Shown in pieces: positions 8,578 to 31,196 of a stretch of 51,618 nt of DNA (the first letter of the stretch is position 1; the number at the start of each line of letters is the position of its first letter). The translations under genes were made by a program, and so were the position numbers. Source of the DNA: Candidatus Omnitrophota bacterium (GTDB lineage: Bacteria > Omnitrophota > Gorgyraeia > Tantalellales > Tantalellaceae); contig JBDRAX010000043.1 in assembly GCA_043823375.1 (NCBI GenBank), positions 1 to 51,618 on the forward strand, given 5' to 3'. The notes beneath the pieces are model-generated. The model was not told where the DNA came from. It worked only from the letters and a program-made list of their open reading frames with translations, and did not search any database.

Positions 8578-8588
8578 AGGAGGAGAAC

Positions 8589-9992: not shown

Positions 9993-10004
9993 AAAGGGAC
10001 GGAC

Positions 10005-13105: not shown

Positions 13106-16100
13106 ATGAAAAAGAAGAATATCTCAGTGGGTTCATTAAGCTTAAGTTTGTCCATGCTTATTTTCATGATACTGGCGTCTGTGCTTCTGCCATGCGGCGC
13201 GTACGCGCAGAACGGCGCGGGTTACGATGACGCTATCCCGCTTTCGACCGGCGAAACGGTTTCCGGATCGGTCGGGCTTAACAGCACGAAATATTATTCG
13301 TTCCGTCTGGAAAGCGGGCAAAGCGCGAAGATCACCATGCAGCCGGTTGGAAGCGATAAGGACCTTTACATAGACGGCCCGGCCGGGGGACAGATAGGTG
13401 TAAGCGGGAACCAGAATACGGAACTTGAACAGTGTGATATCGCCGCTTCGGAAAGCGGCACATACTACGCCCGTGTGCATGGTTTCACCGAAGGGCTTTT
13501 CACTATTAACGTCGCGGTTAAAGGGGGCGCCGCTCAGCCCGCGTCATCCGCCGCCGCGCAGACAGACGGGGGTTTTTTCGGCGCTATGCCTCTTTCGGGC
13601 ACTCATACCGCGTCTATCAGCGCCGGGCAAAAGCATTATTACTGGTTTGAACTTTCTACGGGGCAGACCGCGGCTGTACGCCTGTCAGCGTCATCATGGG
13701 ACCAGGACCTCTATCTTTACAGCGCGCCTGACGAAGGGGCGCTTATCCAGATCAGCGGCAACCAGCGGGGCCAGTCCGAAGAGGTCAGTGTGACAGCCTC
13801 GGCTGATACGAGGTATTATGTAAAGGTAGACGGCTGTGAAACCGGCCCGTACACTTTAACCCTGTCTATCGAAGGCGGGGAGGAACCCGCGATCCAGCCG
13901 AAGGCTTCGGTTTCGGGCGGCTTTATGAACGCTGCTCCGCTTTCGGGAACGCTTACGACACTTATCAGTACCGGGCAAAAGCATTATTACTGGTTTGAAC
14001 TTTCCCGGGGGCAGAGCGCGACCGTGTCCATGCCGGCTTCTCAGTCTGACCAGGACCTCTACATTTACAGCGCGCCTGACGAGGGATCGCCTATCCAGGT
14101 CAGCGGCAATCAGCGGGGGCAGTCCGAAGAGGTCAGCGTGACAGCCGCGGCTGATACGAAATATTATGTGAAGGTGGACGGCTTTGAGGCGGGTACATAC
14201 ACATTGAATTTATCGGTCTCAGGCGGCCCAGGGCAGCCGGCCGCGCCGGCCGCCGGGTCCGCCCCGTCACCGGACAAAGACACTGTTCCCGTCAGTGTAA
14301 TACTGACGTCTCATACGGATAAAAATAAAAGGGCCGATAACCGGCCCAGATTTCACTGGAAAATAGAACCTGAAACTCCCGGCATAGCCGTGAAATATCG
14401 CGTTTATATCGGCACAGACCCCAATAACATGAAACCGCTTTACAACAATAACCTGATCAGCGAACCTTACTGCGATACGGATAAGCCGCTCTTCTATGAT
14501 ACCACGTATTACTGGAAGGTCCGCGCCTTTAACGCGGCCGGGGCCGTTCTTGGGGAAAGCGAAACAGCCGAGATCATCACGCTTTTTCCCAATGAGGATA
14601 CGATCAAGCTTTCCAACCCCATCAGCGTAGATCTTTTTGAAGGGGAGGCGCTGAAGATATGGTTTGACACCCCTGACATCTATTCGATGAAATTGCATTT
14701 TGAGTATATAAAAGCCGCGCCGGAATGGAGCGCGGTCCAGGTCACTGATCCAAAAGGGGCCGTAGCATGGGAAATAAGCGTTACAGAGATAGAAGACATG
14801 TATTCCGCGCCCCTTTCCGGGAATACATGTTTTTTACAGATCCGGAGGGCTAATGAGGACGATCCTGTCAGTTATTCCATTGACCTGATAAACTATAGCA
14901 TAAAAGATCCGTCCGTTAAGTTGACTGAAGCGAATGTCCACTATGAGATAGTATCCAGGCCCGAAGCCCCTGCCCCGGAAACCGTTGACGCGCGGAACGA
15001 TTTTCCCGAAAAACGCGTCATGTTGAAATATCCTGCAGACGGACAGGAGTTTGACAGTTTTATGGACGTTCAGTTCCGGTGGCAGGCGGATAAAGAGGGG
15101 ACAAGGCCGCAGTATTACAGCTTTTATATAGGTACCGTCCCGGACACTCTTTCCTTGAGAATGGATTCTATCCTTGCCCAGATGTATACGATATCGTCCC
15201 GGGAGATGAGCTCCCTTCTCGATGACAACCGGCGGCTGTACTGGTGCGTAAGCTGTACTTACTATGATCCCGTATCCAATAGTTCCATTACAACCCGCAG
15301 CCCGGTCAGGAGTTTTTCGTTCAAGGAACCAGATAAACCCGTGGTCCGGCTCACGCGGCCTTACCCTGACAGCAAAAATGTCTCGCCGAAATTGACTTTT
15401 CACTGGGCCGTGGACCCTTCGGAGTTCCGTTTTTACCGTTCGCGGTTATTACTCGGCAAAACGCCCGAACAACTCGAACCCATCACGCCGCTTATATCCG
15501 AGTTCTATTACAGTATGGATAAGGACTCTCTCGAATATGACACGACGTACTTCTGGAAGGCGCGGGTATTCGCTCCGGAAGGGAAGGACCCTGTAGCTGA
15601 AAGCGAAGTGTTCAGTTTCCGTACTGAATCCCGGCCATGGATAGAAGTTATCCTTGAGCCCGCGGAACTCGAGAAGATAAACCGGGCCGGCCTGCTCCCG
15701 GGCCAGGCGATAAAGGTCACGCTGCCGGGATCGTCCATGAATAAAGCCTATTTCAGTGAGATCCGCTGTACCGCTGACTGGGGCCTGGTCCAGATAGTCG
15801 ATAGTTCCGGCGGGATCTTGTGGGAAAGGCGCGCTGCTATTCCCGATGTGTACACAGATGTATTCGACGGGCCTTCGTTCATCATAAGGACGCGAAAGAC
15901 GAAAGAAGAAGATGAGGCTTCGTATACTATCACGAAACTTTATTATAAGGGCGCGGACAGCGTTATATTTTCGCGGGATGTCCAGATCGAGATCGTCGGG
16001 GACCCGGTTTCAGGAAAGGACGAAAGCGAGACTTTTAAAACCACCAATGACCCCTGCTCCGGTATAGAAGAGGCCCGGGTAAGGCTTAACCGTCCTGACG

Positions 16101-18577
16101 CCGGGAAGCGGTTTTCCTACAGTACCGATATAAGGTTCAGCTGGAGCGTCGATACCCGCGGGATACCTTACGATACATGTGATTACTCGCTTTATGCCGG
16201 CGCTTCAAAAGAAACCATGGCCGAGTTCTCGGGGCTCAAGAACGCCGGATATAACCTCGGTGCGCGCGAGATAGAACGCCTCCTTGGCCCTGACGAAAAA
16301 GAACGGAAGATCATTTGGCAGGTCAAAGCGGTATATACGATAAAAGGCCAGCCTGGCCAGTATAAGGCGTTTTGCAGTCCTCCGCGGGACTTTTTCGTGG
16401 ATCCCCCGGTGAAGCCGTCTATTATCCTGAACAAACCCGACGACAACGCGAAAAATATTATTGCCGGGCCTGTCATTTCCTGGAGGATAAGTTCCGGGCT
16501 CACGGGAGTGTCATACCGTTCCCGGCTTTTTATGGGAAAAGACAAAGAAAATATGGCCCCTGTAAGCCCTAAGATAGATACGTCTTATTTCAGCCTCGCG
16601 GACAGGCCTCTTGACCCGGACACGACGTATTTCTGGCAGATAAAGCTTTATGACCATATCAGTGATGACCCGGTCGCGGAAAGCGGGACGCGGAGTTTCA
16701 AGACAGAGGCCGAGGGCTGGAAAGAGATCGTACTCGAGGAGCCGGAGCTCGGCCTGATCAACCGGACGGACCTGCCGGCATCAAAAGTTCTCAGGGTCGA
16801 GGTGCCGTGCGGTTACGTAAAAGTTAATTTCGCTGACGTTTTGACTGCCCCGGATAAGGCCTGGGTAGAGATAACGGATACTGCCGGTATGCTTTTATGG
16901 CAGATAAGCGGGTCCGTGTATGATGTAAAAAGCAAACCTGTATCAGGAGGGATCTTCAATATCCGCGGGAACAAAACCTCTATGGAGGATGAGCTGAAAT
17001 ACGATATAGATAAACTGTATTACAGGGAGGCGGGAAAAACACTTACATCCTCCGACGTGAAAATAACTATACGAGACGATCCCGCGGGCGCCATGGAAAA
17101 CGCCGTTAACCTGGAAGAGAAAGAAACACCTCTTGAGGATGTGGTTGAGGCGCGTGTTGACCTGAAACTCCCCGAGAGCGAAGCAGGAGTGCCTTATGGG
17201 GCCCCGGTTACTTTCTCATGGGAGGTTGACACCGAAGGGCTTGATTACGACACATTCTCTTTTGACCTTTATGTCGGTACTGATACGAAAAAAATGTTCT
17301 CCGTGGAAAACCTGGAAACATCGAGTTATACGCTTTCCCCGCGGGATATAGAAGGTATCCTTGAGAACAGCCCGGACCGCTGGCTTTACTGGTCCGTGCA
17401 GTGCAGATCCTCCGTACGGGGCGAGCCCGGTACGGTCCGCGTGTTCCGAAGCCCCGTAAGATCGTTTCTCGCCCGCAGGGAAGTAACTCCGGTGGTAACG
17501 CTGGAAACTCCGTCCAATAACGAGTCAGGGGTCTACAGAAGCACTCAGCTGCGCTGGAATGTCAAAGACGCCGATACAGGAGAATCCCTCAGCGGGGTAT
17601 CGTACAGATCTCAGGTATTCCTTTCCGAAGAAGGGAAACCATTGGCGGCTATCAGCCAGCCGCTTGATTATTGGCTGTATTCACTGAAATTGCATGTGCT
17701 TGAATTCGACAGGTCCTATCAGTGGATGATAAAAGTGATCGATCCCGCGCGGAACAAAGTTGTGGCGGAAAGCCCGGTATGGCATTTTTCCACAGAGAAA
17801 CAGATGGTGATCTATTATAAAAAAGCAGAAAAAAACGTCGCGGAGATCATAAAGAAAGCCAAAGAGGAAAAATCCCGGGAGGGGGATACCGTAAAAAAAA
17901 CAGATCAACCCCCCGTACGTCCCGAAACGCTTACGGAAAGGCCGCCGCAAGTTCCCGCGCTTACTAAGAAGGAACCGGCGGAAAGAAAGGTCGATATGAC
18001 AAAACTTATAGGCTCTCTCGAGACTGTTTCAAACAGGAATAAGCCTGTCGTAATGCCCCCTCCCGTTGTAAGCGGAGGCGGCGGCGCGGGCGCAGGTTCC
18101 GCCGCGGCCGCGGGAAAACAGCCCTCGTACGATCCCAACCCGGAAATAGAACGCGTTACTGCGCTGGCAGGGAAAGTGCAGTTCCCGAATATTTTCAAGA
18201 ACCCCGACGGTTTCAGGAGCGGGCTTAACCAGCTAATCGGTTATTTCAGGGAGCTATCCCAAATAGTGAGGGCGTATAAAAGCGGCGTGACCGCGGCGAA
18301 CCTTGAAAAGCTCCGGGATCTCGCTAACACCGAGAGGGCGAAAGCCAGGGATCTGATAAGAGCTCTCGAGAACAGTAAATACGCGCGGATAAAGAACCAG
18401 ACACTTAAGCCGCTTACGGATCTGGAGGCGGAAGCCACGAAACTGGCGGAACTCTCTGGCGGCGCTGTAAACAGGCAAACTTCAGTCGATACGCGGGAAT
18501 ATGAAGAAAATAAAAAGAAGATAGAACGGGAAACAAAAAAACAATTGAAGGAACTCGACGCCCTGTACAAACGGTAA
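13106..18577 (+). CDS. giant secreted repeat protein: 3x pre-peptidase C-terminal (PPC)-like domains, 3 supermodules of Fn3-like/beta-sandwich domains, C-terminal coiled coil
   Basis: 1823 aa. Signal peptide ...LLPCGAYA|QNG. Three units of the type A.PLS.G......I..G.KHYYWFEL..GQ......DQDLY.Y...(PPC-like). These are followed by repeating Fn3-like units ending ..TTYYWKVRA/TTYFWQIKL..., interleaved with W..VQ(V/I)(T/V)D..G domains. Then a K/E/P-rich linker, a GGGGAGAGSAAAAG stretch and a heptad-rich tail. RBS AAAGGTGG. Confidence 0.9.
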   Translation: MKKKNISVGSLSLSLSMLIFMILASVLLPCGAYAQNGAGYDDAIPLSTGETVSGSVGLNSTKYYSFRLESGQSAKITMQPVGSDKDLYIDGPAGGQIGVSGNQNTELEQCDIAASESGTYYARVHGFTEGLFTINVAVKGGAAQPASSAAAQTDGGFFGAMPLSGTHTASISAGQKHYYWFELSTGQTAAVRLSASSWDQDLYLYSAPDEGALIQISGNQRGQSEEVSVTASADTRYYVKVDGCETGPYTLTLSIEGGEEPAIQPKASVSGGFMNAAPLSGTLTTLISTGQKHYYWFELSRGQSATVSMPASQSDQDLYIYSAPDEGSPIQVSGNQRGQSEEVSVTAAADTKYYVKVDGFEAGTYTLNLSVSGGPGQPAAPAAGSAPSPDKDTVPVSVILTSHTDKNKRADNRPRFHWKIEPETPGIAVKYRVYIGTDPNNMKPLYNNNLISEPYCDTDKPLFYDTTYYWKVRAFNAAGAVLGESETAEIITLFPNEDTIKLSNPISVDLFEGEALKIWFDTPDIYSMKLHFEYIKAAPEWSAVQVTDPKGAVAWEISVTEIEDMYSAPLSGNTCFLQIRRANEDDPVSYSIDLINYSIKDPSVKLTEANVHYEIVSRPEAPAPETVDARNDFPEKRVMLKYPADGQEFDSFMDVQFRWQADKEGTRPQYYSFYIGTVPDTLSLRMDSILAQMYTISSREMSSLLDDNRRLYWCVSCTYYDPVSNSSITTRSPVRSFSFKEPDKPVVRLTRPYPDSKNVSPKLTFHWAVDPSEFRFYRSRLLLGKTPEQLEPITPLISEFYYSMDKDSLEYDTTYFWKARVFAPEGKDPVAESEVFSFRTESRPWIEVILEPAELEKINRAGLLPGQAIKVTLPGSSMNKAYFSEIRCTADWGLVQIVDSSGGILWERRAAIPDVYTDVFDGPSFIIRTRKTKEEDEASYTITKLYYKGADSVIFSRDVQIEIVGDPVSGKDESETFKTTNDPCSGIEEARVRLNRPDAGKRFSYSTDIRFSWSVDTRGIPYDTCDYSLYAGASKETMAEFSGLKNAGYNLGAREIERLLGPDEKERKIIWQVKAVYTIKGQPGQYKAFCSPPRDFFVDPPVKPSIILNKPDDNAKNIIAGPVISWRISSGLTGVSYRSRLFMGKDKENMAPVSPKIDTSYFSLADRPLDPDTTYFWQIKLYDHISDDPVAESGTRSFKTEAEGWKEIVLEEPELGLINRTDLPASKVLRVEVPCGYVKVNFADVLTAPDKAWVEITDTAGMLLWQISGSVYDVKSKPVSGGIFNIRGNKTSMEDELKYDIDKLYYREAGKTLTSSDVKITIRDDPAGAMENAVNLEEKETPLEDVVEARVDLKLPESEAGVPYGAPVTFSWEVDTEGLDYDTFSFDLYVGTDTKKMFSVENLETSSYTLSPRDIEGILENSPDRWLYWSVQCRSSVRGEPGTVRVFRSPVRSFLARREVTPVVTLETPSNNESGVYRSTQLRWNVKDADTGESLSGVSYRSQVFLSEEGKPLAAISQPLDYWLYSLKLHVLEFDRSYQWMIKVIDPARNKVVAESPVWHFSTEKQMVIYYKKAEKNVAEIIKKAKEEKSREGDTVKKTDQPPVRPETLTERPPQVPALTKKEPAERKVDMTKLIGSLETVSNRNKPVVMPPPVVSGGGGAGAGSAAAAGKQPSYDPNPEIERVTALAGKVQFPNIFKNPDGFRSGLNQLIGYFRELSQIVRAYKSGVTAANLEKLRDLANTERAKARDLIRALENSKYARIKNQTLKPLTDLEAEATKLAELSGGAVNRQTSVDTREYEENKKKIERETKKQLKELDALYKR
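13569..14264 (+). repeat. 348-bp in-frame tandem duplication (PPC-like domains 2 and 3)
   Basis: gggcaaaagcattattactggtttgaactttc occurs at 13625 and at 13973, a period of 348 nt. The two units are roughly 85% identical at the nucleotide level by eye. Confidence 0.85.
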
Positions 18578-19245: not shown

Positions 19246-20472
19246 ATGAACTTCGCGGTTGATTATTTAGGGAAGAAATTCGAAAATCCGTTCGTGATCG
19301 CTTCGTCTCCGCCTGTCGCTGACAGTGATATGATCTCAAGGGCGTTTGATGCCGGATGGGCGGGTGTCGTTACGAAAACGCTTATACAGGAGCCGGTAAA
19401 GAATTTAAAGAATCGTTTCGCGTCATGTAAAATAGGTAAAGATATTTTCGCTTTTGAAAATATCGAGCTTCTCAGTGAGAACAGCCCGGAACAGTGGTAT
19501 CGGGATATCCGTTTACTTAAGAAAAGGTTCCCGGAAAAGATAGTTATCGGCAGTATAATGGGCGACGCGAAAAGCGGGGAACAATGGGTCCGGCTCGCTT
19601 CAGGCTGCCAGGATGCCGGTTGCGACATGATAGAGCTTAATTTTTCATGCCCCCATGGTTATCCTGAAAAGGGAAAAGGGTCAGCTATCGGCCAGAACCC
19701 CGAGTTTTCTTCATTGATCACAGGGTGGATCAAAAGTGAAAGAAGCGTAACTATTCCCATTATTCCCAAATTGACCGGAGCGGTAGCGGATATTTCCCAT
19801 ATCGGCCGCGCCGTTAAGGACGCGGGCGCGGACGGCATTTGCGCTATAAACAGTTTCCCGTCAATAATGGGGTTTGACCTTGATACGTTAAAGCCTTTGC
19901 CGAACGTTGCGGGCTATACCACTCCGGGCGGATATTCCGGGCCGGGCCTTAAGCCTATCGCGCTCAGATGCGTATCGGATCTTGTAAAGAACCCGAATCT
20001 GCCGGTTATGGGCGGTGGAGGGATCTCGTCAGGCAAAGACGCGGCGGAGTTTATTCTCGCGGGTGCTTCTGTGCTTCAAATATGCACGGCGGTAATGCTG
20101 CGCGGCTATTCAGTTGTATCGGGAATGCTGGCTGAACTTGAAGAATTCATGGAAAAGCATAAATTTTCCGGGATAAATGATTTTCTGGGAGCAGGCAACA
20201 ATATGATCCGCGGGTATTCCGAACTCGATATGGATTATTCCGTAAAAGCGTTTGTCGATCCGGATAAATGTTCAGGCTGCGGAAAATGTTTTGTTTCTTG
20301 CAGGGACGCCGCGTACCAGGCGATCGAAATGAGAGATAACCGGGCAATTGTAGATGCCGGTAAATGTAAGGGGTGTTCATTGTGCTGTCAGATATGCGCG
20401 GATAACGCGATTAAAATGGTTCAGTTGACTGATAAAATGTTGTATCCGGGCTCATACAATGGCTTGGGATAA
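19246..20472 (+). CDS. preA: dihydropyrimidine dehydrogenase subunit PreA-like (DHOD-fold flavoprotein with C-terminal 2x[4Fe-4S] ferredoxin domain)
   Basis: 408 aa. Contains FENPFVIASSPP, AGWAGVVTKTL, ELNFSCPHG and GGGISSGKDAAEF, plus two CxxCxxCxxxC clusters (CSGCGKCFVSC and CKGCSLCCQIC). No preT partner lies adjacent. Confidence 0.8.
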   Translation: MNFAVDYLGKKFENPFVIASSPPVADSDMISRAFDAGWAGVVTKTLIQEPVKNLKNRFASCKIGKDIFAFENIELLSENSPEQWYRDIRLLKKRFPEKIVIGSIMGDAKSGEQWVRLASGCQDAGCDMIELNFSCPHGYPEKGKGSAIGQNPEFSSLITGWIKSERSVTIPIIPKLTGAVADISHIGRAVKDAGADGICAINSFPSIMGFDLDTLKPLPNVAGYTTPGGYSGPGLKPIALRCVSDLVKNPNLPVMGGGGISSGKDAAEFILAGASVLQICTAVMLRGYSVVSGMLAELEEFMEKHKFSGINDFLGAGNNMIRGYSELDMDYSVKAFVDPDKCSGCGKCFVSCRDAAYQAIEMRDNRAIVDAGKCKGCSLCCQICADNAIKMVQLTDKMLYPGSYNGLG

Positions 20473-20543
20473 CGCGTTCAGGAACAGAATGGTGTTCGTT
20501 CCTGTTATTCAAAGAGACAGGGCGTAAGCGTCGGGAGGAAGAC

Positions 20544-21566
20544 ATGACATGTTCTTTAAGTGTTTCCAGGGATTTTTTTAATTATTATTTTGTCAAATGG
20601 GGCTTGAAAGAAAAAAGCCGGTTAACGCTGAATACTCATCCTGACCCGATAGTTCTCAGTATAAATGCCGGGCAGGTAAAATACAGTAAAGGGTTGCTTA
20701 AGTCTATATTCAGGCTGGTGAGGAATAAAAATATCAGATATTACGCGGATACCGGTAAAATTTCGGTATATAGCCGGGATCAGAGATCCAGTATGGAAAT
20801 GGAGCTGGACATCGATGCTTTAGAAACAGTCGAGGCGATGTTGTCCTGCGGCGGAAAATGTGAAGACGTTGAGCGCGATCTGTTCATGATAACATTCGAT
20901 AACGATCTGAAATTTTTGATACGAAAAGTTCCTGTGGCGGACATTGCGACTTTGAAAGAAACTATGCTTGACGGGGAGTATGCTTTTCTTTATCCGTATG
21001 TAAAAGGGAAAGCGGTTCTTGATATCGGCGCGTATATAGGCGATACCTCGATCATGTTCTGTTTAAATGGAGCTAAAACAATAGCGGCATATGAACCGGA
21101 CCCCCTCTTGTTCGATATATGTTCGAGAAACATCAGGTTAAATGGTATGGCGTCGAAAATTGATGTAAGGAACTATGGTGTGAGCGATAAAGAAGGCCTT
21201 ATCAATGAAAAAGGGTATAGTTTTATAGGCCCCGAACTTTTATTTGACAGGGAAAAACATTTTATTTCCGGGGAAACTCGGATGAAAATATTATCTTTCT
21301 CGAAAATCATCGAACAAATGCAGGAAATAGACGTGCTTAAAATGGATTGTGAGGGCGCGGAGTTCCCGGCGATCCTTTCTACCCCTCCGGGCCTTTTAAA
21401 GAGAATAACGGCGATCGGCATGGAATGTCACGATGACCCTGAACCTCTGATCGATCATCTGAAAAAGGCTGGCTTCAAAGTTGAGATCAAGAAAGAAATA
21501 AAAACGCGGGATAAACATTTGACGATCCTGTTTGCCGCGCGGGACAGGGATACAACGCGGAAATAA
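20544..21566 (+). CDS. FkbM-family SAM-dependent methyltransferase
   Basis: 340 aa. Contains VLDIGAYIGDTSIMF, AYEPDP..F and IDVLKMDCEGAEF, typical of Methyltransf_21/FkbM. The N-terminal ~150 aa are unassigned. Confidence 0.8.
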   Translation: MTCSLSVSRDFFNYYFVKWGLKEKSRLTLNTHPDPIVLSINAGQVKYSKGLLKSIFRLVRNKNIRYYADTGKISVYSRDQRSSMEMELDIDALETVEAMLSCGGKCEDVERDLFMITFDNDLKFLIRKVPVADIATLKETMLDGEYAFLYPYVKGKAVLDIGAYIGDTSIMFCLNGAKTIAAYEPDPLLFDICSRNIRLNGMASKIDVRNYGVSDKEGLINEKGYSFIGPELLFDREKHFISGETRMKILSFSKIIEQMQEIDVLKMDCEGAEFPAILSTPPGLLKRITAIGMECHDDPEPLIDHLKKAGFKVEIKKEIKTRDKHLTILFAARDRDTTRK

Positions 21567-21904: not shown

Positions 21905-21933
21905 TTGAAAAATAGATTATGTTTTGTTATAAT
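21905..21933 (+). promoter_or_regulatory. near-consensus sigma70 promoter abutting the start codon of the 1147-aa gene
   Basis: TTGAAA (21905-21910), a 17-nt spacer, then TATAAT (21928-21933). ATG 21943 begins only 10 nt after the -10 hexamer and no SD is present. Confidence 0.5.
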
Positions 21934-21942
21934 TAGAATGTT

Positions 21943-24900
21943 ATGATAAGAAGAAGTAAGAAAATTCATAATTATCGTAAACTCATTACAACCGTACTTG
22001 CGGTTGTTTTTTTGTCTGATACTTGTTGCCATGGTTTGGCAATTCAACCCGCGTCAAATAATCTTCCGGTCAGAAATGATATCCAGCGTATATTGAAAGA
22101 GGAACATTTTGATCCGCGTAAAATCTCGAAAAGTATCAAGAATGTTCTGGATCGAGAAAACACTTCCCGGGGCAGACAGCAGGAGCTCTATAAGTTGATG
22201 GCTTTATACAATATAGATCAGGAATATTTCACGCGTATATGGAATTCCGTTGTTTTGCAGGGGTGCAACAGCGATGTAGCACAGCTTGAAGATCTGGAAA
22301 GATTGTTAGATCAGATACAAAATAATATTTTGCGTAAAATAAGAAAACTGGATCTAAGCGTGGATGAAGCTGTGCTGCGGTCAGGTACCGCGCTTTGTGA
22401 GTGGGCGGCAGAGTGCCGGGATGCCGATAAGAAAAAACTCAGGGTGTTGCATGTCCTGGGAGTGCCATATGATAAGACCGGAAGCGGTATGGTCGCGTGT
22501 AATATTACGTCGGAGCAGGGAAAGTGCGGCGATGAATGGAAACTGTGCTGCGCCGATTATGAACCCAGCGGGAAAGAAAATATTGAAACTATACTCTTTA
22601 CCGCTGGGCAGGGAGATCCGCTTGATGGCGCCGTAAGTTTTCCGGTGCCTACGTACTCAAAAGGTATGCCGTTCACGCATATCAGGTATAGCGAGATGAG
22701 CGAATTACAGCTTGTCGAGTTCTGCGAGAAATATCACGCGTTCCTGAAAAATGTAATAGAAACATATAAGCCGGATATAATAAATACGAACCATCTGTTC
22801 CTGCTGAATCCCATAGTTGAAATTATAGCTCCGTGGGTGCCTGTCGTCTGCACAACGCATGGGACAGAAGAAAAAATGCTCAGAGATCACCCTGAAATGA
22901 AGGGGCTTGTGACAAAAGGGGCACTGAAGGTAGATAAGGTTTTCTGCGTGTCCGACTCTCTAAAAAAGGAAGTTCAGGAAATATACGGCGTGGCTCCCGA
23001 CAGGGTCGCTTTGACGGAGAATGGTTTCGATGGCCTTTTATTTCAGCCGAGAGAATTATCCAGAAAAGATGTTCTGGCCAAATATGGTATTAGTGACGAA
23101 TTTGACAAGATAGTTTTATACGCGGGGAAATACAGCGAATGGAAAGGTATAGAATTTTTGATAGAAGCGGCCGCGCGGAATAACGCGGGGAGCGGGAGGA
23201 AAGTTTTGACTCTTATCGCCGGAGGCGGGTCGCGTGAATTGTACGATAAATACCGCGGTATAGTGTCCGGGCATTCGGCCGGTAACTATATCAAGTTCAT
23301 AGAATTATACGGTAACAGGCAGACGGAAATCAGTGAGCTCATGAACATATCGGATGTTTTTGTCCTCCCAAGCTTTTCGGAACCTTTTGGTATGGTTTTA
23401 CTGGAAGCCATGGCTTGCGGCATGCGCGTTGTGGCCGCTGACAGAGGCGGGCCTCCGATGTTTGTGGGAAAAGATCTGATAGATAAGGGCCTTGCGAAGC
23501 TGGTCAGGCCCGTAAAACTGGATGATCGCGGTAACGCTGATATCCGGGATCTTGATAATTATGTTTCCGCGTTGAGTGAAGGGGTTCTCGATGTTATAAA
23601 TACTCCCGAAAATCCGGGTGAAAGAGATATGATCTCAAAGTCCGTCGGGCAGAGGAGATGGGAAGCAGTATATAGGAAAATAAGGGAGGAATATAAAGAC
23701 GCGATAGAACGCAGGATGAACAGATACCTGATGGTGCCTCTGGATTCTGCTTTTTCGGGGATCGTGGAATTATGCGGCGGTAAAGCTCTGGGGTTAAACA
23801 GAATTAATGATCTCCGGATGGAGGGGTTTAATGTCCCCGGGGGGCAGGTGATCACGACCCTGGCTTTCAGACATTTTATCGGAAGTAACGATGCGCTCAA
23901 AACTAAAGTATTAATGCTGGATAAAATTTCGAAAGATTTATGCGATATAAGTGGACAGGATGAACGCGGTGGACGTGCCAGCGTATTGCGGGAGGAGCTC
24001 GCGCGGCTGAGCGGGGAGATAAGAGACGCGGTTTTTGAAAGTGAACTTCCGGCGGATATAAAGAAAGCGATAAAAGACTATTACAGTGTTTCCGGGAAAA
24101 AACTTTTTGCCGTTAGGAGTTCCGCCGTAGATGAGGATACCGAAGACGACGCCGCCGCGGGCAGATATCATACGGAATTAAATGTGGTTTCTTGTGAAAA
24201 AATGGAGGAGGCGTTAAAGACCGTATGGGCGTCTTTTTTTTCCGATAACGCTGTCGCGATAAGGAATGAAAAGAGAAACGGCGCGATCAAAAAAAATGAA
24301 AACCCGGACAGGTATCTGAATTCCGGCGCCAGGATGGCCGTGATACTGCAGGAGATGGTGAATTCCGAGGCTTCCGGTATTTCATATAATGTTAATGTCG
24401 AAAACGGCCTTGAAGAAATAGTGATAGAAGCGGTTAAGGGTTACGGCGATGATTTCGCGAGCGGAGATATAACTCCCGATTTCTGGAGGTTCAAATATGA
24501 CAAACGAGAAGAGCGGCCGGTTCTCCTGGAAGAGATAATAAGGGGCAAGCCTTATTTAAGGGAGAAGTCGACGCGGGACGAGCCCGCGTTGACCCGCACG
24601 CGGGCGGCGCTTCTTTCTGGCGTATTGCAGAAAATAGCGGATCGGTTTAAAGAAGTACACGGTATACAGTACCTGGATTTTGAGTTTACTTTCGATGAGG
24701 CGGGAAAGCTGTATATCCTGCAGGCGAGGCCTTTGACAGTTGTGCCTTATTCTGTCTTTAATCCGGTTTGTGACGGAGTGAAGAGAGAGGCCGCTGAGGA
24801 TGTCCCTTATGTGGAATTGAACGGTGTTGCCGGATACCCGGGTGTCGCTTCGGGAAGGCTTGTCATTGTGGATAATCCCGGGGACTTTCCCTCGTACGTT

Positions 24901-25386
24901 AATCTTGAGGAAGCCTCACGGCTGATAAAAGAAGGAGACATTTTATGTACCCCCACAGTGAATGTGGGGTGGACGCGTCTTTTTGATAAATTGGCGGGAG
25001 TAATAGCGGAAAGAGGGGGGATGACGTCACATACGGCTACAATCGCGAGACAGAAAGGGGTCCCGGCGCTTGTGGGCGCGAAGAACGCGATAGCACAGCT
25101 CAGGAAAATGAATATGCGGGAAGTTACTCTTGACGTTTATAACCAGATTGTATACGAAGGGAACGTTGAAACAGAAAAAATGCCGCTTAATGATATATTG
25201 TGGCGAGTCCCGGAAGCAGGCAGGGATTACAACAGAAATGAACCATCCCATTTTGTGGATTCAAAAGGGAAAGAGTGGGTAAGAAACCGGTGTATCCTCT
25301 TGGAAATCTTTTGTGTGATATTTCGTACAAGGGGATGCTTAAGATCTTTGAGCTTTTCCCCGGGGTTGACCTTCCGATGTTCATGA
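21943..25386 (+). CDS. giant anchored protein 1a: N-terminal hydrophobic anchor + GT4 glycosyltransferase + PPDK/PEP-synthase-type ATP-grasp (PPDK_N) + phosphohistidine swivel domain
   Basis: 1147 aa. Anchor KLITTVLAVVFLSDTCC. GT4 region from about 22438 to 23700 (LRVLHVLG..., EPFGMVLLEAMACGMRVVAADRGGP). PPDK_N from about 23740 to 24745 (CGGKALGLNRI, FAVRSSAVDEDTEDDAAAG, LDFEFTF...LYILQARPLT). Swivel from about 24822 to 25160 (GGMTSHTATIARQKGVPALVG; His codon 25030-25032). Confidence 0.85.
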   Translation: MIRRSKKIHNYRKLITTVLAVVFLSDTCCHGLAIQPASNNLPVRNDIQRILKEEHFDPRKISKSIKNVLDRENTSRGRQQELYKLMALYNIDQEYFTRIWNSVVLQGCNSDVAQLEDLERLLDQIQNNILRKIRKLDLSVDEAVLRSGTALCEWAAECRDADKKKLRVLHVLGVPYDKTGSGMVACNITSEQGKCGDEWKLCCADYEPSGKENIETILFTAGQGDPLDGAVSFPVPTYSKGMPFTHIRYSEMSELQLVEFCEKYHAFLKNVIETYKPDIINTNHLFLLNPIVEIIAPWVPVVCTTHGTEEKMLRDHPEMKGLVTKGALKVDKVFCVSDSLKKEVQEIYGVAPDRVALTENGFDGLLFQPRELSRKDVLAKYGISDEFDKIVLYAGKYSEWKGIEFLIEAAARNNAGSGRKVLTLIAGGGSRELYDKYRGIVSGHSAGNYIKFIELYGNRQTEISELMNISDVFVLPSFSEPFGMVLLEAMACGMRVVAADRGGPPMFVGKDLIDKGLAKLVRPVKLDDRGNADIRDLDNYVSALSEGVLDVINTPENPGERDMISKSVGQRRWEAVYRKIREEYKDAIERRMNRYLMVPLDSAFSGIVELCGGKALGLNRINDLRMEGFNVPGGQVITTLAFRHFIGSNDALKTKVLMLDKISKDLCDISGQDERGGRASVLREELARLSGEIRDAVFESELPADIKKAIKDYYSVSGKKLFAVRSSAVDEDTEDDAAAGRYHTELNVVSCEKMEEALKTVWASFFSDNAVAIRNEKRNGAIKKNENPDRYLNSGARMAVILQEMVNSEASGISYNVNVENGLEEIVIEAVKGYGDDFASGDITPDFWRFKYDKREERPVLLEEIIRGKPYLREKSTRDEPALTRTRAALLSGVLQKIADRFKEVHGIQYLDFEFTFDEAGKLYILQARPLTVVPYSVFNPVCDGVKREAAEDVPYVELNGVAGYPGVASGRLVIVDNPGDFPSYVNLEEASRLIKEGDILCTPTVNVGWTRLFDKLAGVIAERGGMTSHTATIARQKGVPALVGAKNAIAQLRKMNMREVTLDVYNQIVYEGNVETEKMPLNDILWRVPEAGRDYNRNEPSHFVDSKGKEWVRNRCILLEIFCVIFRTRGCLRSLSFSPGLTFRCS

Positions 25387-28013
25387 AAGGTAATGTACTG
25401 TACGTGGGATATGAGGAACTGTTAACCGTTCCGGATAAAATATACGAACGCGGGACGGATTTTATAGAAACGTTTTTTAAAGACAGAAAAAGGACGATAA
25501 ACAGGTTAAAGGACTACGCCGGCATGGAAAGCCTTAACGCCGGTAATATAGAAGATTTTTTCAAAGTTTATGTAATGGCGATGATGCATATGCATTTAAG
25601 AGCCGGTTTCAGGAGAAGGGTTGCCTTAAGGAAAAGAGGGGAAGTTATCGCGGCTCTTCCAGGGGGTATCAGAAATATTCTCACGTATATGCTGGCAATG
25701 AACGCGCCTTCGGAAGAGAACATGAATAGTGAGGCTGACACCGCGTTCAGCCGGATCCTCGGGGATTTGTCAGGTGAGGAAAAAGCGTTTTTGCTTAATA
25801 AGGATGAAATAGAGGTTGTCAGAATCCTGCCGGAGAGATACCCGGGATTATATGGAGAGCTGGAAAGATTCCTCAAAAATTACAGGATTACCCGTCTCCA
25901 GAGAGATGACTGGGATGCCCCGTTAATGTGGAGGCACGTTATATCCATGATTAAAGACGCTTTGAAAAGCGGTGATAGCTCCCGCGGGGGGGACATGGTA
26001 TACCGCGGAATGGAAGGGTTTAAATTATTTATTGAGAGCCTTAAACCGGAAATATTGAAGTCTGCCCCTGAAATGGATTTCGACGAATTCACTCGGGTTA
26101 TCATGCTTTCGGAAGAACAGAGTATCCAGGTTGAGAATGAGCGGCAGGTCTACCAGAAAGTTTTATTTTCGATGAAAGACAAACTTTTATCTCTGGGCGC
26201 GCTCCTGAGAGAAAGAGGGGTATTAAAAAGCGGCGATACTTTGCTTTCTCATACGATGGAGGAAGTAACAGGAATGGTTCAGATCGCTGATTCCGGGGCT
26301 ATAGCCGCGGCGGATGAAAAAGGGCGGGACGATGATATAGTGTCTTCTGAAGAAATACGTTTTATGGAGGTGCATCCTACAAACAGGTGCAACCTGCGGA
26401 ACACAAAGGCATGCAGCGGTATTTGCACATACGACAGCTTCCATTCCGCGGCTAAGACGCTCCCTTTTAACGCGATAGAGAGGATAGCGCGGTATAATCC
26501 GGAATATATACTGATAGCAGGAGGAGGTGAGCCCGCGTTATATGATTGTGAGGGGAAAGATTTTTCCGATTTTATACTCGAGATGAGGAAGTATCTGCCG
26601 GATACCAGGATGGAGCTGTGTACAAATGGAGTCAAATACATTAAAGAGGAATGCCATCCCGAAATATCTTCCATAAGGGTCAGCCTTCACGGATATTCAG
26701 AACATGAGTGCGCGTGGCACGCTGTAAAAAGCTGGAAAAATTTGTGGCGGTATTTTACGGAAAGTCCCATAGCGGAAATATGGGTAACTTACAGAATAAA
26801 CAAGGACAATTATCTCGAGGCCGCGCATTTAGCTGAAAAGTTATGGATGACCTGGCAGGAAAAAGTAAAGGAAGATCCGGTTTTAGGAAAGAAAGAGTTC
26901 GGGTTTAAAATAATCTGTGAAGCGGACGACAGGGAGGAATTTGTTACAGATCCCTATCACGCTTCTTCGCTTGATTTAAATATGCGGAGGTTGTGGCGTG
27001 AAAAAATAAACGGGATCAAAGAGGCGGGAAGCGGTTTTGGTAAATTCCTTGCCGATATGGAAGATGGGCATCTTGCTTCGAATTTTACTCTGCCGCCTGA
27101 AATAATAACAGGTATTTTTCCACAGCGCGGAACGGCGCCATGTTCGAAATGTTTTCTCGCCGGGGATTACGCCCTTTTCGCGGCAGATGGGGACATCTAT
27201 CCATGCTGCATAATGACGGCACAGTCGAAAAACCGTTACGGCAGTGTATTTTCCGATCCCGCTGACATATTTGAGGCCAGGAAAAAATTGGCCAGGGACG
27301 CATATCCGGCGTGTAAGGCGGGGTGCAGGCTTCACGACACCGTGGTGGGTAAACTTGTGAGAAAAAGGATCGAGGAAAAAAAGAGAGATCGGGCGTTGAG
27401 ATCGGACAATTCCCGGTATGTAATTAACGAAGACAGAAAAGCGTATTTAACTTATGACATGAAAAGCCTGGGACAGTTGAAGGATGAAGGTATGATAACG
27501 CGAGGCAAGTATGTGATCTGGTATAATCCCGAAAAACTGCCGGAGCAATATGCGGATATTCTAAGACAATATGCCGGTTTGCTTGAGCGCGAGCAAGGAG
27601 TAAAGATAACGATCGCGCCATTTTCAGGAGAGAGGTCCAGGTTTAAGGGATCTCTTCTGGCGGTTGATTATAAAAACGCGGATTATACCGGAGAAAGCGT
27701 TATCGATGTGGATACCGAATGCGGTATAGAGAACTATCTTTTAAGGATCACGGGGATTTTAAATATGGCTATGGCAATAGCGACGATTCCATCAGGTACG
27801 GATGACAAAACGCTTATGCTGGAATATGAATATATAGTCATGTTTGTGAAACAGCAGTATCATTCCATTATGGGAGAAGAATATGACCTTTTCCAGAAAG
27901 GGAAGACCGCTTACGAAAATTTGCGTTGTATTGTCCTGCGCCTGCCGGGAATGTATAAGATAGACAGTGTTGAGATATATCAGTATAACAATATCGTAAA
28001 GAAAGCTTTATAG
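25275..28013 (+). CDS. giant protein 1b: PEP-synthase-type helical linker-like region + radical-SAM/SPASM-like core + shared C-terminal module
   Basis: 912 aa from GTG 25275. Alternative starts are ATG 25377 and ATG 25383, the latter forming an ATGA overlap with the upstream stop. rSAM-like elements: TNRCNLRNTKACSGICTY, LIAGGGEPALY, MELCTNG and IRVSLHG, then CSKCFLAG...ADGDIYPCC. The tail from about 27500 is shared with the 952-aa protein. There is no N-terminal anchor. Confidence 0.8.
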   Translation: MGKKPVYPLGNLLCDISYKGMLKIFELFPGVDLPMFMKGNVLYVGYEELLTVPDKIYERGTDFIETFFKDRKRTINRLKDYAGMESLNAGNIEDFFKVYVMAMMHMHLRAGFRRRVALRKRGEVIAALPGGIRNILTYMLAMNAPSEENMNSEADTAFSRILGDLSGEEKAFLLNKDEIEVVRILPERYPGLYGELERFLKNYRITRLQRDDWDAPLMWRHVISMIKDALKSGDSSRGGDMVYRGMEGFKLFIESLKPEILKSAPEMDFDEFTRVIMLSEEQSIQVENERQVYQKVLFSMKDKLLSLGALLRERGVLKSGDTLLSHTMEEVTGMVQIADSGAIAAADEKGRDDDIVSSEEIRFMEVHPTNRCNLRNTKACSGICTYDSFHSAAKTLPFNAIERIARYNPEYILIAGGGEPALYDCEGKDFSDFILEMRKYLPDTRMELCTNGVKYIKEECHPEISSIRVSLHGYSEHECAWHAVKSWKNLWRYFTESPIAEIWVTYRINKDNYLEAAHLAEKLWMTWQEKVKEDPVLGKKEFGFKIICEADDREEFVTDPYHASSLDLNMRRLWREKINGIKEAGSGFGKFLADMEDGHLASNFTLPPEIITGIFPQRGTAPCSKCFLAGDYALFAADGDIYPCCIMTAQSKNRYGSVFSDPADIFEARKKLARDAYPACKAGCRLHDTVVGKLVRKRIEEKKRDRALRSDNSRYVINEDRKAYLTYDMKSLGQLKDEGMITRGKYVIWYNPEKLPEQYADILRQYAGLLEREQGVKITIAPFSGERSRFKGSLLAVDYKNADYTGESVIDVDTECGIENYLLRITGILNMAMAIATIPSGTDDKTLMLEYEYIVMFVKQQYHSIMGEEYDLFQKGKTAYENLRCIVLRLPGMYKIDSVEIYQYNNIVKKAL

Positions 28014-28466: not shown

Positions 28467-28742
28467 ATGCCGATAGATTATGCCAGGGACGCTGAGGTTT
28501 TGAAAGCTGTGGCTCATCCTGTACGCTTGAGGATAGTTCAGGGGCTTATGAGGAACGAGTGTAATGTCACAAAGATAGTCCGGGCGCTTGGGCTGCCGCA
28601 ATCGACGGTTTCCCAGCATCTCGGGGTTCTGAGGGCCGCGGGGATACTTGTTCCAAGGAAGAGCGGCGTGAAGACGTGTTATCAAGTCGTGGACGGGCGG
28701 GTTATGAAGATCATTGAGGTATTTGAAAATAAAAGGGGATGA
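28467..28742 (+). CDS. ArsR/SmtB-family transcriptional regulator
   Basis: 91 aa. LKAVAHPVRLRIVQGL...CNVTKIVRALGLPQSTVSQHLGVLRAAGIL is the canonical ArsR wHTH. Confidence 0.9.
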   Translation: MPIDYARDAEVLKAVAHPVRLRIVQGLMRNECNVTKIVRALGLPQSTVSQHLGVLRAAGILVPRKSGVKTCYQVVDGRVMKIIEVFENKRG

Positions 28743-28748
28743 TAGAAA

Positions 28749-31196
28749 ATGAAACTTATAATAGTGGGCGGTGTCGCGGGCGGAGCGGCCGCGGCGGCAA
28801 GGGCGCGGCGGCTTGATGAGAGGGCGGAGATAATAGTGTTTGAGCGCGGAGAGTATATTTCTTTCGCGAATTGCGGCCTTCCATATTACGCGGGCGGGGT
28901 TATCAAAGAAAGGGAAAGGCTTCTCATACAGACGCCCGAGGGTTTCAGTGAACAGTTTGATCTGAAAGTCCGGACGCGGAGCGAAGTGGTAAGTATAGAC
29001 AGGGAAAAAAAAGAAGTTCGGGTAGTTGATAAAAAGTCAGGGAAAGAATATGACGAAACATATGATAAGCTTATACTTTCACCGGGCGCGGCGCCGATAA
29101 GGCCGCCTTTTGAGGGCGCGGATCTGGATGTTGTGCATGTGGTGAGGGCTCTTACGGATATAGACAGGATAAAAGCGGAGATAGATTCAGGCGTAGTCAG
29201 AAGGGCTGTCGTTGTCGGCGCGGGTTTCATAGGCATAGAGATGGCGGAAAATCTGACTGAACGTAAGATAGAGACGCATCTTGTGGAAAGGCTCGACCAG
29301 GTAATGCCGCCTTTTGACAAGGATATGGCGGTCATACTTAACAGACAGCTCGCGTTCCACGGAGTGAGGCTGTACTTGAAGGATGAAGTGCGGAAAATAC
29401 GAAAAAGCGCGGAAGGAGCCATAGTCGAGACTTCATCGGGAAAAAACATAGTGTGTGACATGGTGATACTTTGCGCGGGTGTGAGGCCGGAGTTAAAACT
29501 CGCGAAGGAGGCGGGGATAGAGACAGGTAAGTACGGCATAGTTACCAACGAGAAAATGATGACATCCGATAAGGATATTTACGCGATCGGGGATGTGGTG
29601 GAGGTTGTTAACCCTGTTACGAAGAAGAAGCATTATGTGCCTCTCGCGTGGCCGGCGGCTAAACAGGGAGTGGTAGCCGCGAATAATATTTTCGGCAAGG
29701 ATGATTCCTATAAAGGGACATACGGCACATCTGTCGTGAAAGTATTCACGCTTACCGCCGCCATGAGCGGTGCGTCGGAAAAAGTCTTGAAAGCGGAAGG
29801 GATACCTTACGGGAAAATATATACCCACCCCGCGAACCATGCCGGATATTATCCTGGCGCCATGCAGATGTGCGTGAAACTTTTATTCTCTCCGGACAGC
29901 GGCAGGATTTTAGGAACGCAGATAATCGGGCATGAAGGCACGGATAAAAGAGTAGATATACTTTCTGTGGCGATAAAACACGGTCTTACGGTTTACGACC
30001 TTTCGGAGATGGAATTATGTTACGCCCCGCCTTACGGTTCGGCTAAAGACGCGGTCAATCTCGCGGGAATGGCGGCGGTAAATCATCTTGAAGGATTCAG
30101 CCCGCTTACGCACTGGGAGGAACTCGGCGGCGAAGAGTTCCTGCTCGACGTGAGGACAAAAGAGGAGCTTGAAAAAGGGCGGGTGAAGAATTCCGTGAAC
30201 ATACCGCTTAATGAATTAAGAGGCAGGTTGAGAGATCTCCCTGCCGATAAGGAAATAGCGGTTTTCTGTCAGGTGGGGATACGCGGGCATCTGGCCGCGC
30301 GCGTACTTCTCCAGAACGGGTACAGAGTAAAGAATATCTCGGGCGGGTATCTGACATATTTGAATTATCAGGACGCGTATGTCCTGGATTCTTCAGCCGC
30401 CCTGGATGAGGGGAGAATAGCTGAGACTTTCTGCACGGCGCCCACGGGAAAACCGGCCGGCGGTTTTAAGGGGGCAGTCAGGGAAATAGACGCGAGGGGC
30501 CTCCAGTGCCCGGGGCCTGTTGTTAAACTGAAGGAAGCGATGGGATCCGTTGAGCATGGAGATATCGTGAAAATAAAGTCCAGCGATATGGGTTTCGCGA
30601 TGGATATACCGAAATGGTGCCAGTCATCCGGGAATGTTCTTGTCAGCCTTACCGCGGAACCTGACGGGACAACGGCTTTTGTCATGAAGGGAGTTAAGGA
30701 CAAAAAGCGCGAGGATGTGCCGGGCGGCCGGGGTACCACTATAGTTGTTTTTTCGCAGGACATGGACAAGGTAATGGCGTCTTTGATAATAGCACGGTCA
30801 GCGGCTTCAACAGGAGGGAAGGTCAGTATGTTCTTTACTTTCTGGGGATTGAACGCGCTTAAGAGAAAGCCGTCGGTTAAGGCCTCAAAAGATTTTCTGT
30901 CGCGGATGTTTGGTTTCATGCTTCCATCGTCGATCTCCGATCTGAAACTGTCGAAGATGAATATGCTGGGCGCCGGCACAGGTATAATGAAGTATATAAT
31001 GCGGAAAAAAAACGTGACAAGCCTTGATGAAATGCTGAAGGGCGCGGTCAGCGACGGCGTCGAAATCGTGGCGTGCTCAATGAGCATGGATGTCATGGGG
31101 ATAAAGAAAGAAGAGCTTATTGACGGCGTAAAAATAGGCGGAGCCGCGTATTATGTATCCGTCGCGGCGGCTTCCAATCATAATTTGTTTATATAA
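28749..31196 (+). CDS. CoA-disulfide/persulfide reductase-like flavoprotein fused to rhodanese, TusA-like and DsrE-like domains
   Basis: 815 aa. Contains IIVGGVAGGAAAA (FAD binding), the redox Cys in SFANCGLPYY (codon 28872-28874), the rhodanese loop VFCQVGIRG, the TusA motif GLQCPGPVVKLKEAM, and a C-terminal DsrE/DrsE-like segment (IVVFSQDMDKVMASLIIA...FFTFWGL...CSMSMDVMG). Confidence 0.9.
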   Translation: MKLIIVGGVAGGAAAAARARRLDERAEIIVFERGEYISFANCGLPYYAGGVIKERERLLIQTPEGFSEQFDLKVRTRSEVVSIDREKKEVRVVDKKSGKEYDETYDKLILSPGAAPIRPPFEGADLDVVHVVRALTDIDRIKAEIDSGVVRRAVVVGAGFIGIEMAENLTERKIETHLVERLDQVMPPFDKDMAVILNRQLAFHGVRLYLKDEVRKIRKSAEGAIVETSSGKNIVCDMVILCAGVRPELKLAKEAGIETGKYGIVTNEKMMTSDKDIYAIGDVVEVVNPVTKKKHYVPLAWPAAKQGVVAANNIFGKDDSYKGTYGTSVVKVFTLTAAMSGASEKVLKAEGIPYGKIYTHPANHAGYYPGAMQMCVKLLFSPDSGRILGTQIIGHEGTDKRVDILSVAIKHGLTVYDLSEMELCYAPPYGSAKDAVNLAGMAAVNHLEGFSPLTHWEELGGEEFLLDVRTKEELEKGRVKNSVNIPLNELRGRLRDLPADKEIAVFCQVGIRGHLAARVLLQNGYRVKNISGGYLTYLNYQDAYVLDSSAALDEGRIAETFCTAPTGKPAGGFKGAVREIDARGLQCPGPVVKLKEAMGSVEHGDIVKIKSSDMGFAMDIPKWCQSSGNVLVSLTAEPDGTTAFVMKGVKDKKREDVPGGRGTTIVVFSQDMDKVMASLIIARSAASTGGKVSMFFTFWGLNALKRKPSVKASKDFLSRMFGFMLPSSISDLKLSKMNMLGAGTGIMKYIMRKKNVTSLDEMLKGAVSDGVEIVACSMSMDVMGIKKEELIDGVKIGGAAYYVSVAAASNHNLFI

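Follow-up and report, generated by a model that had tools for sequence, protein, structure and literature searches.

What does a protein do that joins, in one chain, a family 4 glycosyltransferase (GT4) to the ATP-grasp and phosphohistidine swivel domains of phosphoenolpyruvate (PEP) synthases? This question is raised by a gene on contig JBDRAX010000043.1 of a Candidatus Omnitrophota bacterium (assembly GCA_043823375.1), of which we analysed a stretch of 51,618 nucleotides, hereafter called the window (Table 1). Our results point, with a probability of roughly 60%, to a fused three-enzyme pathway that tailors a small sugar, cyclitol or nucleoside-like molecule and is carried as cargo in an Omnitrophota-type chassis. 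The three enzymes would be the GT4, a dikinase resembling rifampin phosphotransferase (RPH) and a radical S-adenosylmethionine (SAM) enzyme. The putative chassis, recognised from sequence, would consist of a signal-like N-terminus and a shared C-terminal domain.

In the window assembly, the gene appears as two open reading frames (ORFs) in different frames, which overlap by 112 nucleotides. The first, of 1147 amino acids, carries the GT4, ATP-grasp and swivel domains, while the second, of 912 amino acids, had no Pfam match. Most likely, the frame break at 25280 is an assembly error and the true product is one chain, because contigs from two public sequencing runs contain an extra base at this site and six homologues (P0002, P0061, P0075, P0071, P0092 and the ORF of locus L038) continue in one frame across the junction. 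Adding the base yields a chain of 2,023 amino acids. The initial annotation ended the protein after the swivel; it most likely runs on to about twice that length. The extra base was found after position 25280 in two of the four runs (X1 and X2), at full depth (4–5); both runs belong to one sample, which may be the source sample. The X2 contig bridges the site well and is the only one with at least 31 letters on both sides, while the X1 contig has 20 letters on one side. In a run from another study (X3) the contig begins at 25281, with a loose end compatible with the same extra base. Run X4 has no cover at 25280, and the evidence for the extra base is of low depth and comes mainly from one sample.

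The domains named in the initial annotation are present in one chain, and all of them exceed the Pfam cut-offs. The ATP-grasp (PF01326, PPDK_N) covers residues 609–934 (E 6e-51) and the swivel (PF00391) residues 995–1066 (E 8e-19). In the alignment, Lys22, Arg117 and His825 of RPH correspond to K614, R725 and H1030 of the window protein. The absence of the PEP/pyruvate-binding barrel was also borne out: the genome contains three PF02896 matches, and each lies on a contig other than that of the window. Scores for the NCBIfam models of PEP synthase (200–208 against cut-offs of 598–740), RPH (NF041857; 154 bits against 999) and PigC were all far below the cut-off. The initial annotation was right to set the protein apart from PpsA and PPDK, and very probably right to assume a phosphohistidine that serves a non-pyruvate acceptor as in RPH.

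It had further assumed, however, that a third domain is lacking. This is not the case: the ~340 helical residues that follow the swivel form an acceptor domain of the RPH type. Among the 30 nearest clusters in the ESM Atlas, 28 were labelled Rph_4th (score 0.97, low recognition). A structural model of the orthologous domain of locus L037, built from 66 sequences (pLDDT 89.8, pTM 0.88), was compared by Foldseek, and RPH filled the first six rows of the result (best E 0.036). Compared with 48,161 chains, its sole Z score of at least 8 was with RPH (5hv1 residues 322–720; Z 11.2, next 7.1), over 324 aligned residues with a root-mean-square deviation (rmsd) of 7.1. The window's own model listed RPH weakly (E 0.003). 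At the sequence level, hhalign of a four-sequence profile against RPH-like proteins aligned the catalytic helix weakly (probability 55%, E 1e-4). In this weak alignment, the position of RPH Glu667 is Glu or Asp, and that of Lys670 is Arg, in all nine proteins that carry the GT4–kinase–radical SAM cassette. A PDB sequence search with the helical domain gave noise only. An hhalign comparison of a deep alignment with RPH (probability 100) was discounted as evidence on the acceptor domain, since it was driven by the shared ATP-grasp. We conclude that this kinase belongs with the small-molecule dikinases of RPH type and combines the domain order of PEP synthase with an RPH-type acceptor domain.

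The same arrangement is found in many other proteins. A profile of the acceptor domain matched 171 representatives at E ≤ 0.001, and among the 150 matches listed, each of the 92 proteins that have an ATP-grasp as well as a swivel arranges its domains as ATP-grasp, swivel, acceptor; none has the barrel. This reflects a uniform order and not the frequency of the domain, because the set was chosen by the acceptor domain. In RPH and HpeHI, the β-phosphate of ATP is transferred to the histidine, the swivel moves to the acceptor domain, the small molecule is phosphorylated, and AMP and phosphate are released (PMC4844700; PMC12167813). The RPH-type acceptor domains that have been characterised serve small molecules (PMC4844700; PMC12167813; PMC6482885). 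By analogy, the kinase of the window very probably uses an RPH-type mechanism. The ATP-grasp would bind ATP and His1030 would take the β-phosphate, with release of AMP and phosphate. The swivel would then turn to the helical acceptor domain, where the Glu equivalent to RPH Glu667 would position it, and the phosphate would pass to an OH or NH group of a small molecule.

The second enzyme, the GT4, satisfies the two-domain GT-B profile, with Pfam matches to PF13439 (residues 265–363; E 1.5e-12), PF00534 (residues 385–510; E 3e-25) and PF13692, all above the cut-offs. In the alignment with its homologues the Ex7E motif is intact. None of the named subfamilies fits, as every listed NCBIfam GT4 model (BshA, MshA, GlgA-type and others) scored far below its cut-off. 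The nearest stand-alone GT4 (Acetoanaerobium, L035), which lies in an unannotated record, yields no substrate clue, and the Pfam scan found no carbohydrate-binding module. With this fold and motif, the domain would catalyse a retaining transfer from a nucleoside diphosphate (NDP) sugar, the activity known for the family.

The initial annotation identified the GT4, ATP-grasp and swivel correctly and overlooked the third enzyme, a radical SAM domain fused downstream of the acceptor domain. The radical SAM profile PF04055 has no match in the window, because the canonical Cx3Cx2C motif is replaced by Cx7Cx3C. This spacing occurs in eight of the nine cassette members, and other members of the same radical SAM family have the canonical one. 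The three motif cysteines align in all 21 family members, and the four C-terminal cysteines are kept in 20–21 of the 21. The domain is further supported by Foldseek (E 9e-6), by the ESM Atlas (score 0.97) and by VIA structural matches, which were best for SkfB (Z 16.2, rmsd 3.9, 276 aligned residues), followed by MoaA (15.9), BlsE (14.8) and viperin (12.8). Hence, the model indicates that the radical SAM core fold is present, and binding of a [4Fe-4S] cluster and cleavage of SAM are predicted. Family members that lack the kinase adjoin sugar enzymes: a phosphoglucomutase, a ROK protein with a dehydroquinate-synthase-like protein, and a GT2/GT4 cluster.

The initial annotation had proposed a search for the same domain order in other genomes, and the GT4 fusion is indeed conserved in relatives. 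Complete single chains with GT4, kinase and radical SAM in the same order were found in P0002 (39% identity over 972 amino acids), P0061 (43% over 1086) and P0075, and the cassette is partial in P0071, P0092, P0076 (named Elusimicrobia), P0079, L038 and G291, whose parts lie on two contig ends. P0075 (locus L036), of ~1,500 amino acids, is the cassette only. At L037, the GT4 is a separate gene that overlaps the start of a kinase–radical SAM gene. Neither of these two relatives has a signal-like N-terminus. Order and spacing are maintained at 35–45% identity, and in every cassette member the ATP-grasp comes immediately after the GT4. The trees of GT4 and radical SAM both split the window protein, P0061 and G291 from the chassis-free members (FastTree support 0.96/0.80 and 0.99/0.99). 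The kinase tree, which excludes P0075 for its short ATP-grasp, agrees in part: it gives support of 0.998 to the chassis-free group and of 0.999 to the cassette clade as a whole, and places the window protein and P0061 outside the chassis-free group without joining them as a supported pair. These sequence comparisons indicate that the GT4–dikinase–radical SAM trio moves as a unit.

In a single-protein search across 301 genomes of the class, the helical domain matched nothing but G291 (E 1e-66) and, weakly, G040 (E 2e-4); the latter match was dismissed because it sits in a helicase-like protein. Pattern scans of genome contigs gave nothing with P0002, and with alignment A4 only the G291 contig; scans of metagenome contigs with A4 and of viral contigs found no relative, and no plasmid record covered 80% of the cassette. 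At L037 (1895..10266), an island-like stretch, the neighbours of the cassette are genes for a SprT-like protease, a ClpB-type AAA ATPase and another, divergent radical SAM protein. Two ORFs that the ORF listing labels as plus, at L036 (5764..6903) and L038 (3917..5827), lie on the minus strand by six-frame translation, which would place the former head-to-head with the cassette.

The trio also recurs in other arrangements. In a second type of relative, a domain resembling the HIT family stands with the radical SAM and the kinase, in the order radical SAM–HIT–kinase in P0172, P0176 and P0204, and GT4–radical SAM–HIT–kinase in P0209. The order GT4–HIT–radical SAM–kinase occurs within the giant frames of G447 (52,518 amino acids) and G442 (54,392 amino acids). 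For each of the three enzymes, these HIT-type relatives form a clade of their own; therefore, the trio either arose by two separate assemblies or is ancient and has been fused anew. The assignment to HIT is itself weak (PDB E 0.015; DUF4922 E 0.068), resting mainly on a Cys pair and a His triad. P0061 was left out of the HIT-bearing set, because the HIT-like profile does not match its DUF4922 region; nor does the profile match any ORF of the window genome. Locus L057 (G442 C6:336500-354500), in the 54,392-residue frame, has three near-tandem HIT-like copies around a radical SAM domain, 49–58% identical to the copy of G447.

The same kinase module occurs in frames of 23, 52 and 54 thousand amino acids. 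A swivel followed by an RPH-type domain was present in all three frames of more than 20 thousand amino acids examined (G030, G447 and G442), which had been found via the ATP-grasp or radical SAM and not via the acceptor domain. This suggests that the PPDK_N domains of Omnitrophota giants are, at least often, small-molecule kinases. Of the other genomes, G009 has an ordinary PEP synthase, and G017 and G002 have weaker ATP-grasp matches.

Related kinase domains were seen elsewhere as well. In the window, 31387..39243 (+) encodes a signal-bearing protein of 2618 amino acids with a second barrel-less dikinase, whose domains are arranged differently again: first comes a domain with weak similarity to the P0052 C-terminal domain (pairwise E 1e-5), then the swivel and finally PPDK_N. 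The third long protein of this genome with PPDK_N (G000 C178:3-5717, minus strand) has no swivel by profile. At L040 (613..5984), the dikinase is split into an ATP-grasp gene and a separate swivel-first gene, accompanied by genes for an 829-residue protein, a metallo-beta-lactamase-fold protein and a methyltransferase-like protein.

The window protein, P0061 and the G291 orthologue have N-termini of similar layout. The initial annotation called the protein anchored; one N-terminal hydrophobic stretch (residues 14–32) is indeed present, but it is only moderate, with a mean Kyte-Doolittle value of 1.68 against 1.9 for a stretch inside the GT4. The C-terminal domain also occurs in a protein of 952 amino acids without Pfam matches elsewhere in the window (39889..42747, plus strand).

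Taken as a pathway, the three enzymes would act in series on one metabolite and yield a phosphorylated, modified glycoside. The kinase would phosphorylate the small molecule, the GT4 would add a sugar, and the radical SAM enzyme, with an auxiliary Fe-S cluster, might oxidise, dehydrate or epimerise the sugar. In the HIT-type relatives, the dikinase product would possibly be nucleotidylated into a donor for the GT4. The reactions would need ATP, NDP-sugar, SAM and reduced Fe-S clusters; their site would therefore be a cytoplasm, either the cell's own or that of a host. In Omnitrophota, the protein might be tethered to a membrane of the cell itself, or it might end up in prey.

Several observations weigh against this pathway. 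The match of the acceptor domain to RPH is moderate (rmsd 7.1, 10% identity, best Foldseek E 0.036, hhalign probability 55%), and Z scores below 13 can be common among helical bundles. In the weak hhalign alignment, the position of RPH Arg666 is Val in all nine cassette members, while Arg or Lys is found in 79 of 113 other aligned segments. Both Arg666 and Glu667 are essential in RPH (PMC4844700); the acceptor-site chemistry of the cassette would therefore be altered or impaired. The window copy also lacks an acceptor-motif His that is retained in seven of the eight other cassette members, and lies on longer branches than its nearest relatives (0.95 against 0.33–0.40 in the radical SAM tree). 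Among the 150 acceptor-domain matches listed, many of which are fragments, only 11 have this radical SAM and 3 have a GT4 in the same chain. Of 400 further genomes of the phylum, 7 contain the radical SAM family, and in 2 of these the kinase adjoins; of the other five, three are in long frames without kinase in the stretch fetched and two are stand-alone, one of them in a glycosyltransferase cluster. The radical SAM also occurs without kinase in P0216. The sequences examined gave no substrate clue. Finally, few domains are as frequent in long Omnitrophota proteins as GT4 and radical SAM (127 and 90 of 916, respectively; 10.64898/2026.06.07.730766), and therefore chance adjacency is possible inside giants.

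This last point leads to an alternative explanation, which we consider improbable, that Omnitrophota shuffle enzyme domains in their long proteins and that the three enzymes are independent neighbours. Such proteins, with signal sequences, have been described for the phylum (10.1101/2023.11.21.568195; 10.64898/2026.06.07.730766), and the window genome has dozens of long multidomain proteins with signal-like starts. The cargo before the GT4 varies between the window protein, P0061 (DUF4922-like, E 0.01) and G291 (GNAT, phosphorylase). In addition, the kinase module stands elsewhere beside NUDIX, CofD, HAD, 2H or no known domain, and the radical SAM is also found without the kinase. Yet, outside the chassis the trio stands alone in compact proteins (P0075, P0209) and is found as neighbouring genes at L037. 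Chance would also leave unexplained why order and spacing are kept in diverged members, why the same split appears in the trees of GT4 and radical SAM, and why the trio recurs in other orders.

Similarly improbable is a special case of the pathway, in which its product is a weapon. The cassette would then make a nucleotide or nucleoside analogue, antiviral (viperin-like) or antibiotic (blasticidin-type), that is maybe delivered into prey. This would be consistent with viperin, BlsE and AbmM among the fold neighbours of the radical SAM, with weak pVip matches for the HIT-type relatives (E 1e-8 to 4e-5), with partners that handle nucleotides (HIT-like, NUDIX, PRTase), and with a patchy distribution (8 of 401 genomes). 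The SprT-like protease and AAA ATPase at L037 also have weak matches to defence models. However, PADLOC gave no matches for both ORFs of the window and P0075, the scanned viral contigs held no relative, and the Z score of viperin does not exceed that of peptide-modifying radical SAM enzymes (12.8 against 16.2).

The window copy might also be a decaying pseudogene that is truly frameshifted in this strain. The frame break, the faster evolution and the loss of the conserved acceptor-motif His would agree with decay. In contrast, every listed contig at the site has the extra base, albeit at low depth and mainly from one sample. Neither ORF contains a stop codon and every catalytic residue checked is retained. 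The gene is preceded by a strong promoter match, in a scan that returned 25 sites in the region against 12 expected. We therefore regard a pseudogene as quite unlikely.

About as little support remains for the mechanism of the initial annotation, in which the phosphohistidine would reach the active site of the GT4, so that phosphorylation is coupled with the transfer of a sugar onto an envelope or polymer substrate. The GT4 immediately before the ATP-grasp and the signal-like N-terminus would fit such coupling, and glucan water dikinase is reported as a kinase of this type that acts on a polymer. However, the phosphohistidine has its own acceptor domain and therefore need not reach the GT4 site, so that coupling is unneeded; that domain follows the swivel in all 92 proteins mentioned above, a set chosen by the domain itself. 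Moreover, the GT4 is a separate gene at L037 and lies 700–1,800 residues from the kinase in the HIT-type relatives. A polymer substrate is further disfavoured by the lack of a carbohydrate-binding module in the Pfam scan, by the cassettes of L036 and L037 without signal-like start, and by the small-molecule substrates of the characterised RPH-type acceptor domains. Interconversion of pyruvate and PEP, as proposed for Omnitrophota giants (10.1101/2023.11.21.568195), is scarcely credible here: the contig has no PF02896, the NCBIfam scores are far too low, the third domain has a different fold, and RPH is described as working without pyruvate (PMC4844700).

Table 1. Features of the gene and its surroundings in the window (ORF-B is the downstream ORF).
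Feature	Position	Strand	Remarks
Sigma-70-like promoter match, 11/12, extended -10	21905..21933	+	10 nt before start codon; consensus match only
Whole gene	21943..28013	+	~2,023 amino acids; two overlapping ORFs in the window, 21943..25386 and 25275..28013
Signal-peptide-like N-terminus	21943..22038	+	Basic start, hydrophobic residues 14-32; by eye and hydropathy
Helical linker preceding GT4	22063..22422	+	Aligns with same region in P0061 and G291
GT4 (GT-B) glycosyltransferase	22429..23718	+	Gly loop G180, G182; H306; K396/K401; Ex7E E480, E488
PEP-synthase-type ATP-grasp (PF01326)	23767..24744	+	K614, R725, E914, Q927 at conserved RPH/PpsA positions
Phosphohistidine swivel (PF00391)	24805..25179	+	Catalytic His1030 at 25030-25032
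Helical acceptor domain, RPH rifampin-binding-domain type	25195..26294	+	No Pfam match in the Pfam copy used
One-base frame break in window assembly	25280..25281	+	Public-run contigs have one base more; homologues continuous
Acceptor motif	Val-Glu 26130-26135, Arg 26142-26144	+	Align with RPH Arg666-Glu667 and Lys670
Radical SAM domain	26343..27368	+	Cx7Cx3C (ORF-B C372, C380, C384); SPASM/twitch-type C-terminal Cys C626, C644, C680, C684
C-terminal domain (last ~190 residues)	27420..28013	+	Common to 3 other large proteins of the genome, P0061 and the G291 orthologue

Just upstream of the gene (19246..21566, plus strand) lie a dihydropyrimidine-dehydrogenase-like gene with DHO_dh and 4Fe-4S domains and an FkbM methyltransferase, a pair that is not beside the cassette at the other loci examined. 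Downstream (28467..31196, plus strand), an ArsR regulator precedes a CoA-disulfide-reductase-type protein fused to rhodanese, TusA and DsrE. The window further contains, all on the plus strand, an AbiEi/AbiEii type IV toxin-antitoxin pair with DUF5655, MazG and methyltransferase genes after it (1440..3084), and a PLP decarboxylase between two amino-acid permeases, resembling an acid-resistance decarboxylase-antiporter unit (7168..11429). Two more long proteins are a secreted-looking one of 1823 amino acids with three PPC domains and repeated Ig-like modules (13106..18577), and a signal-bearing one of 1317 amino acids with no Pfam matches and another type of C-terminus (45015..48968).

The cassette, with its unusual radical SAM motif, could lead to phospho-glycoside chemistry that is new. 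Its stand-alone versions of ~1,500 amino acids (P0075) offer a compact, testable unit from otherwise intractable Omnitrophota long proteins, and they show the dikinase order ATP-grasp, histidine, acceptor; the acceptor profile matches ~170 representative clusters. A more far-reaching interpretation is tentative and rather unlikely. An undescribed family of rearranged RPH-type dikinases would, together with GT4, the atypical radical SAM and sometimes a HIT-like nucleotidyltransferase, form a mobile single-chain pathway to a new phosphorylated sugar or nucleoside-analogue product. Predatory Omnitrophota would have taken it up as a cargo of exported proteins, to act within prey cells, and the 'PPDK' domains of the giants would then serve as small-molecule kinases and not in central metabolism. 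The full-text literature searched, with few subscription journals and with the preprint supplements that hold the domain catalogue outside its scope, contained no description of the cassette or of this dikinase order, in line with the initial annotation, which knew of no such GT4–dikinase combination.

How does the protein compare with known systems? Omnitrophota giants and Archaeovorins likewise have a signal-like N-terminus with glycosyltransferase, PPDK_N and radical SAM cargo, and the accessible text of the preprints lists these domains separately and reads PPDK_N as a pyruvate/PEP enzyme (10.1101/2023.11.21.568195; 10.64898/2026.06.07.730766). The window protein differs from Archaeovorins in its length (~2,023 against more than 10–30 thousand amino acids), its few hydrophobic stretches and the absence of SecA and C39 in the Pfam scans. 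With PpsA and PPDK, the closest sequence matches for ATP-grasp and swivel, it shares the ATP-grasp followed by a central swivel, but it has an RPH-like third domain instead of the PEP/pyruvate TIM barrel. Its radical SAM domain resembles SPASM/twitch enzymes (SkfB, anSME, BlsE, BtrN, SpeY and viperin; Z 10–16) in its partial barrel, Gly-rich SAM motif and auxiliary Cys set, at 11–17% identity and with no neighbour that stands out; the Cx7Cx3C motif of most cassette members differs from their Cx3Cx2C. BlsE, BtrN and SpeY have sugar-modifying roles.

The kinase shares with RPH the ATP-grasp, the phosphohistidine swivel and a helical acceptor of the same fold, with equivalents of Lys22, Arg117 and His825 and probably of Glu667 (PMC4844700). 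However, RPH has the order ATP-grasp, acceptor, His, while that of the window is ATP-grasp, His, acceptor. Furthermore, the acceptor is ~10% identical, Arg666 is replaced by Val and Lys670 by Arg, and the kinase is fused to GT4 and radical SAM. Hence, it is not rifampin phosphotransferase proper (clade A), as the domain order differs and the score is far too low (154 against 999). The phenolic dikinases HpeHI, CreHI and PpsAB are also naturally rearranged RPH modules that act on other small molecules, but they are described as two-chain, catabolic enzymes with the swivel C-terminal to the acceptor and without GT4 or radical SAM (PMC12167813). TalE and TalC of phosphoramidon biosynthesis, and Cj1418, resemble the window protein by description, in that a PPDK-family kinase for a small molecule and a glycosyltransferase belong to one short pathway; they are encoded by separate genes, and the described pathway has no radical SAM (PMC6482885). 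In TalE and TalC there is a precedent for two such enzymes that work in series on a small molecule (PMC6482885).

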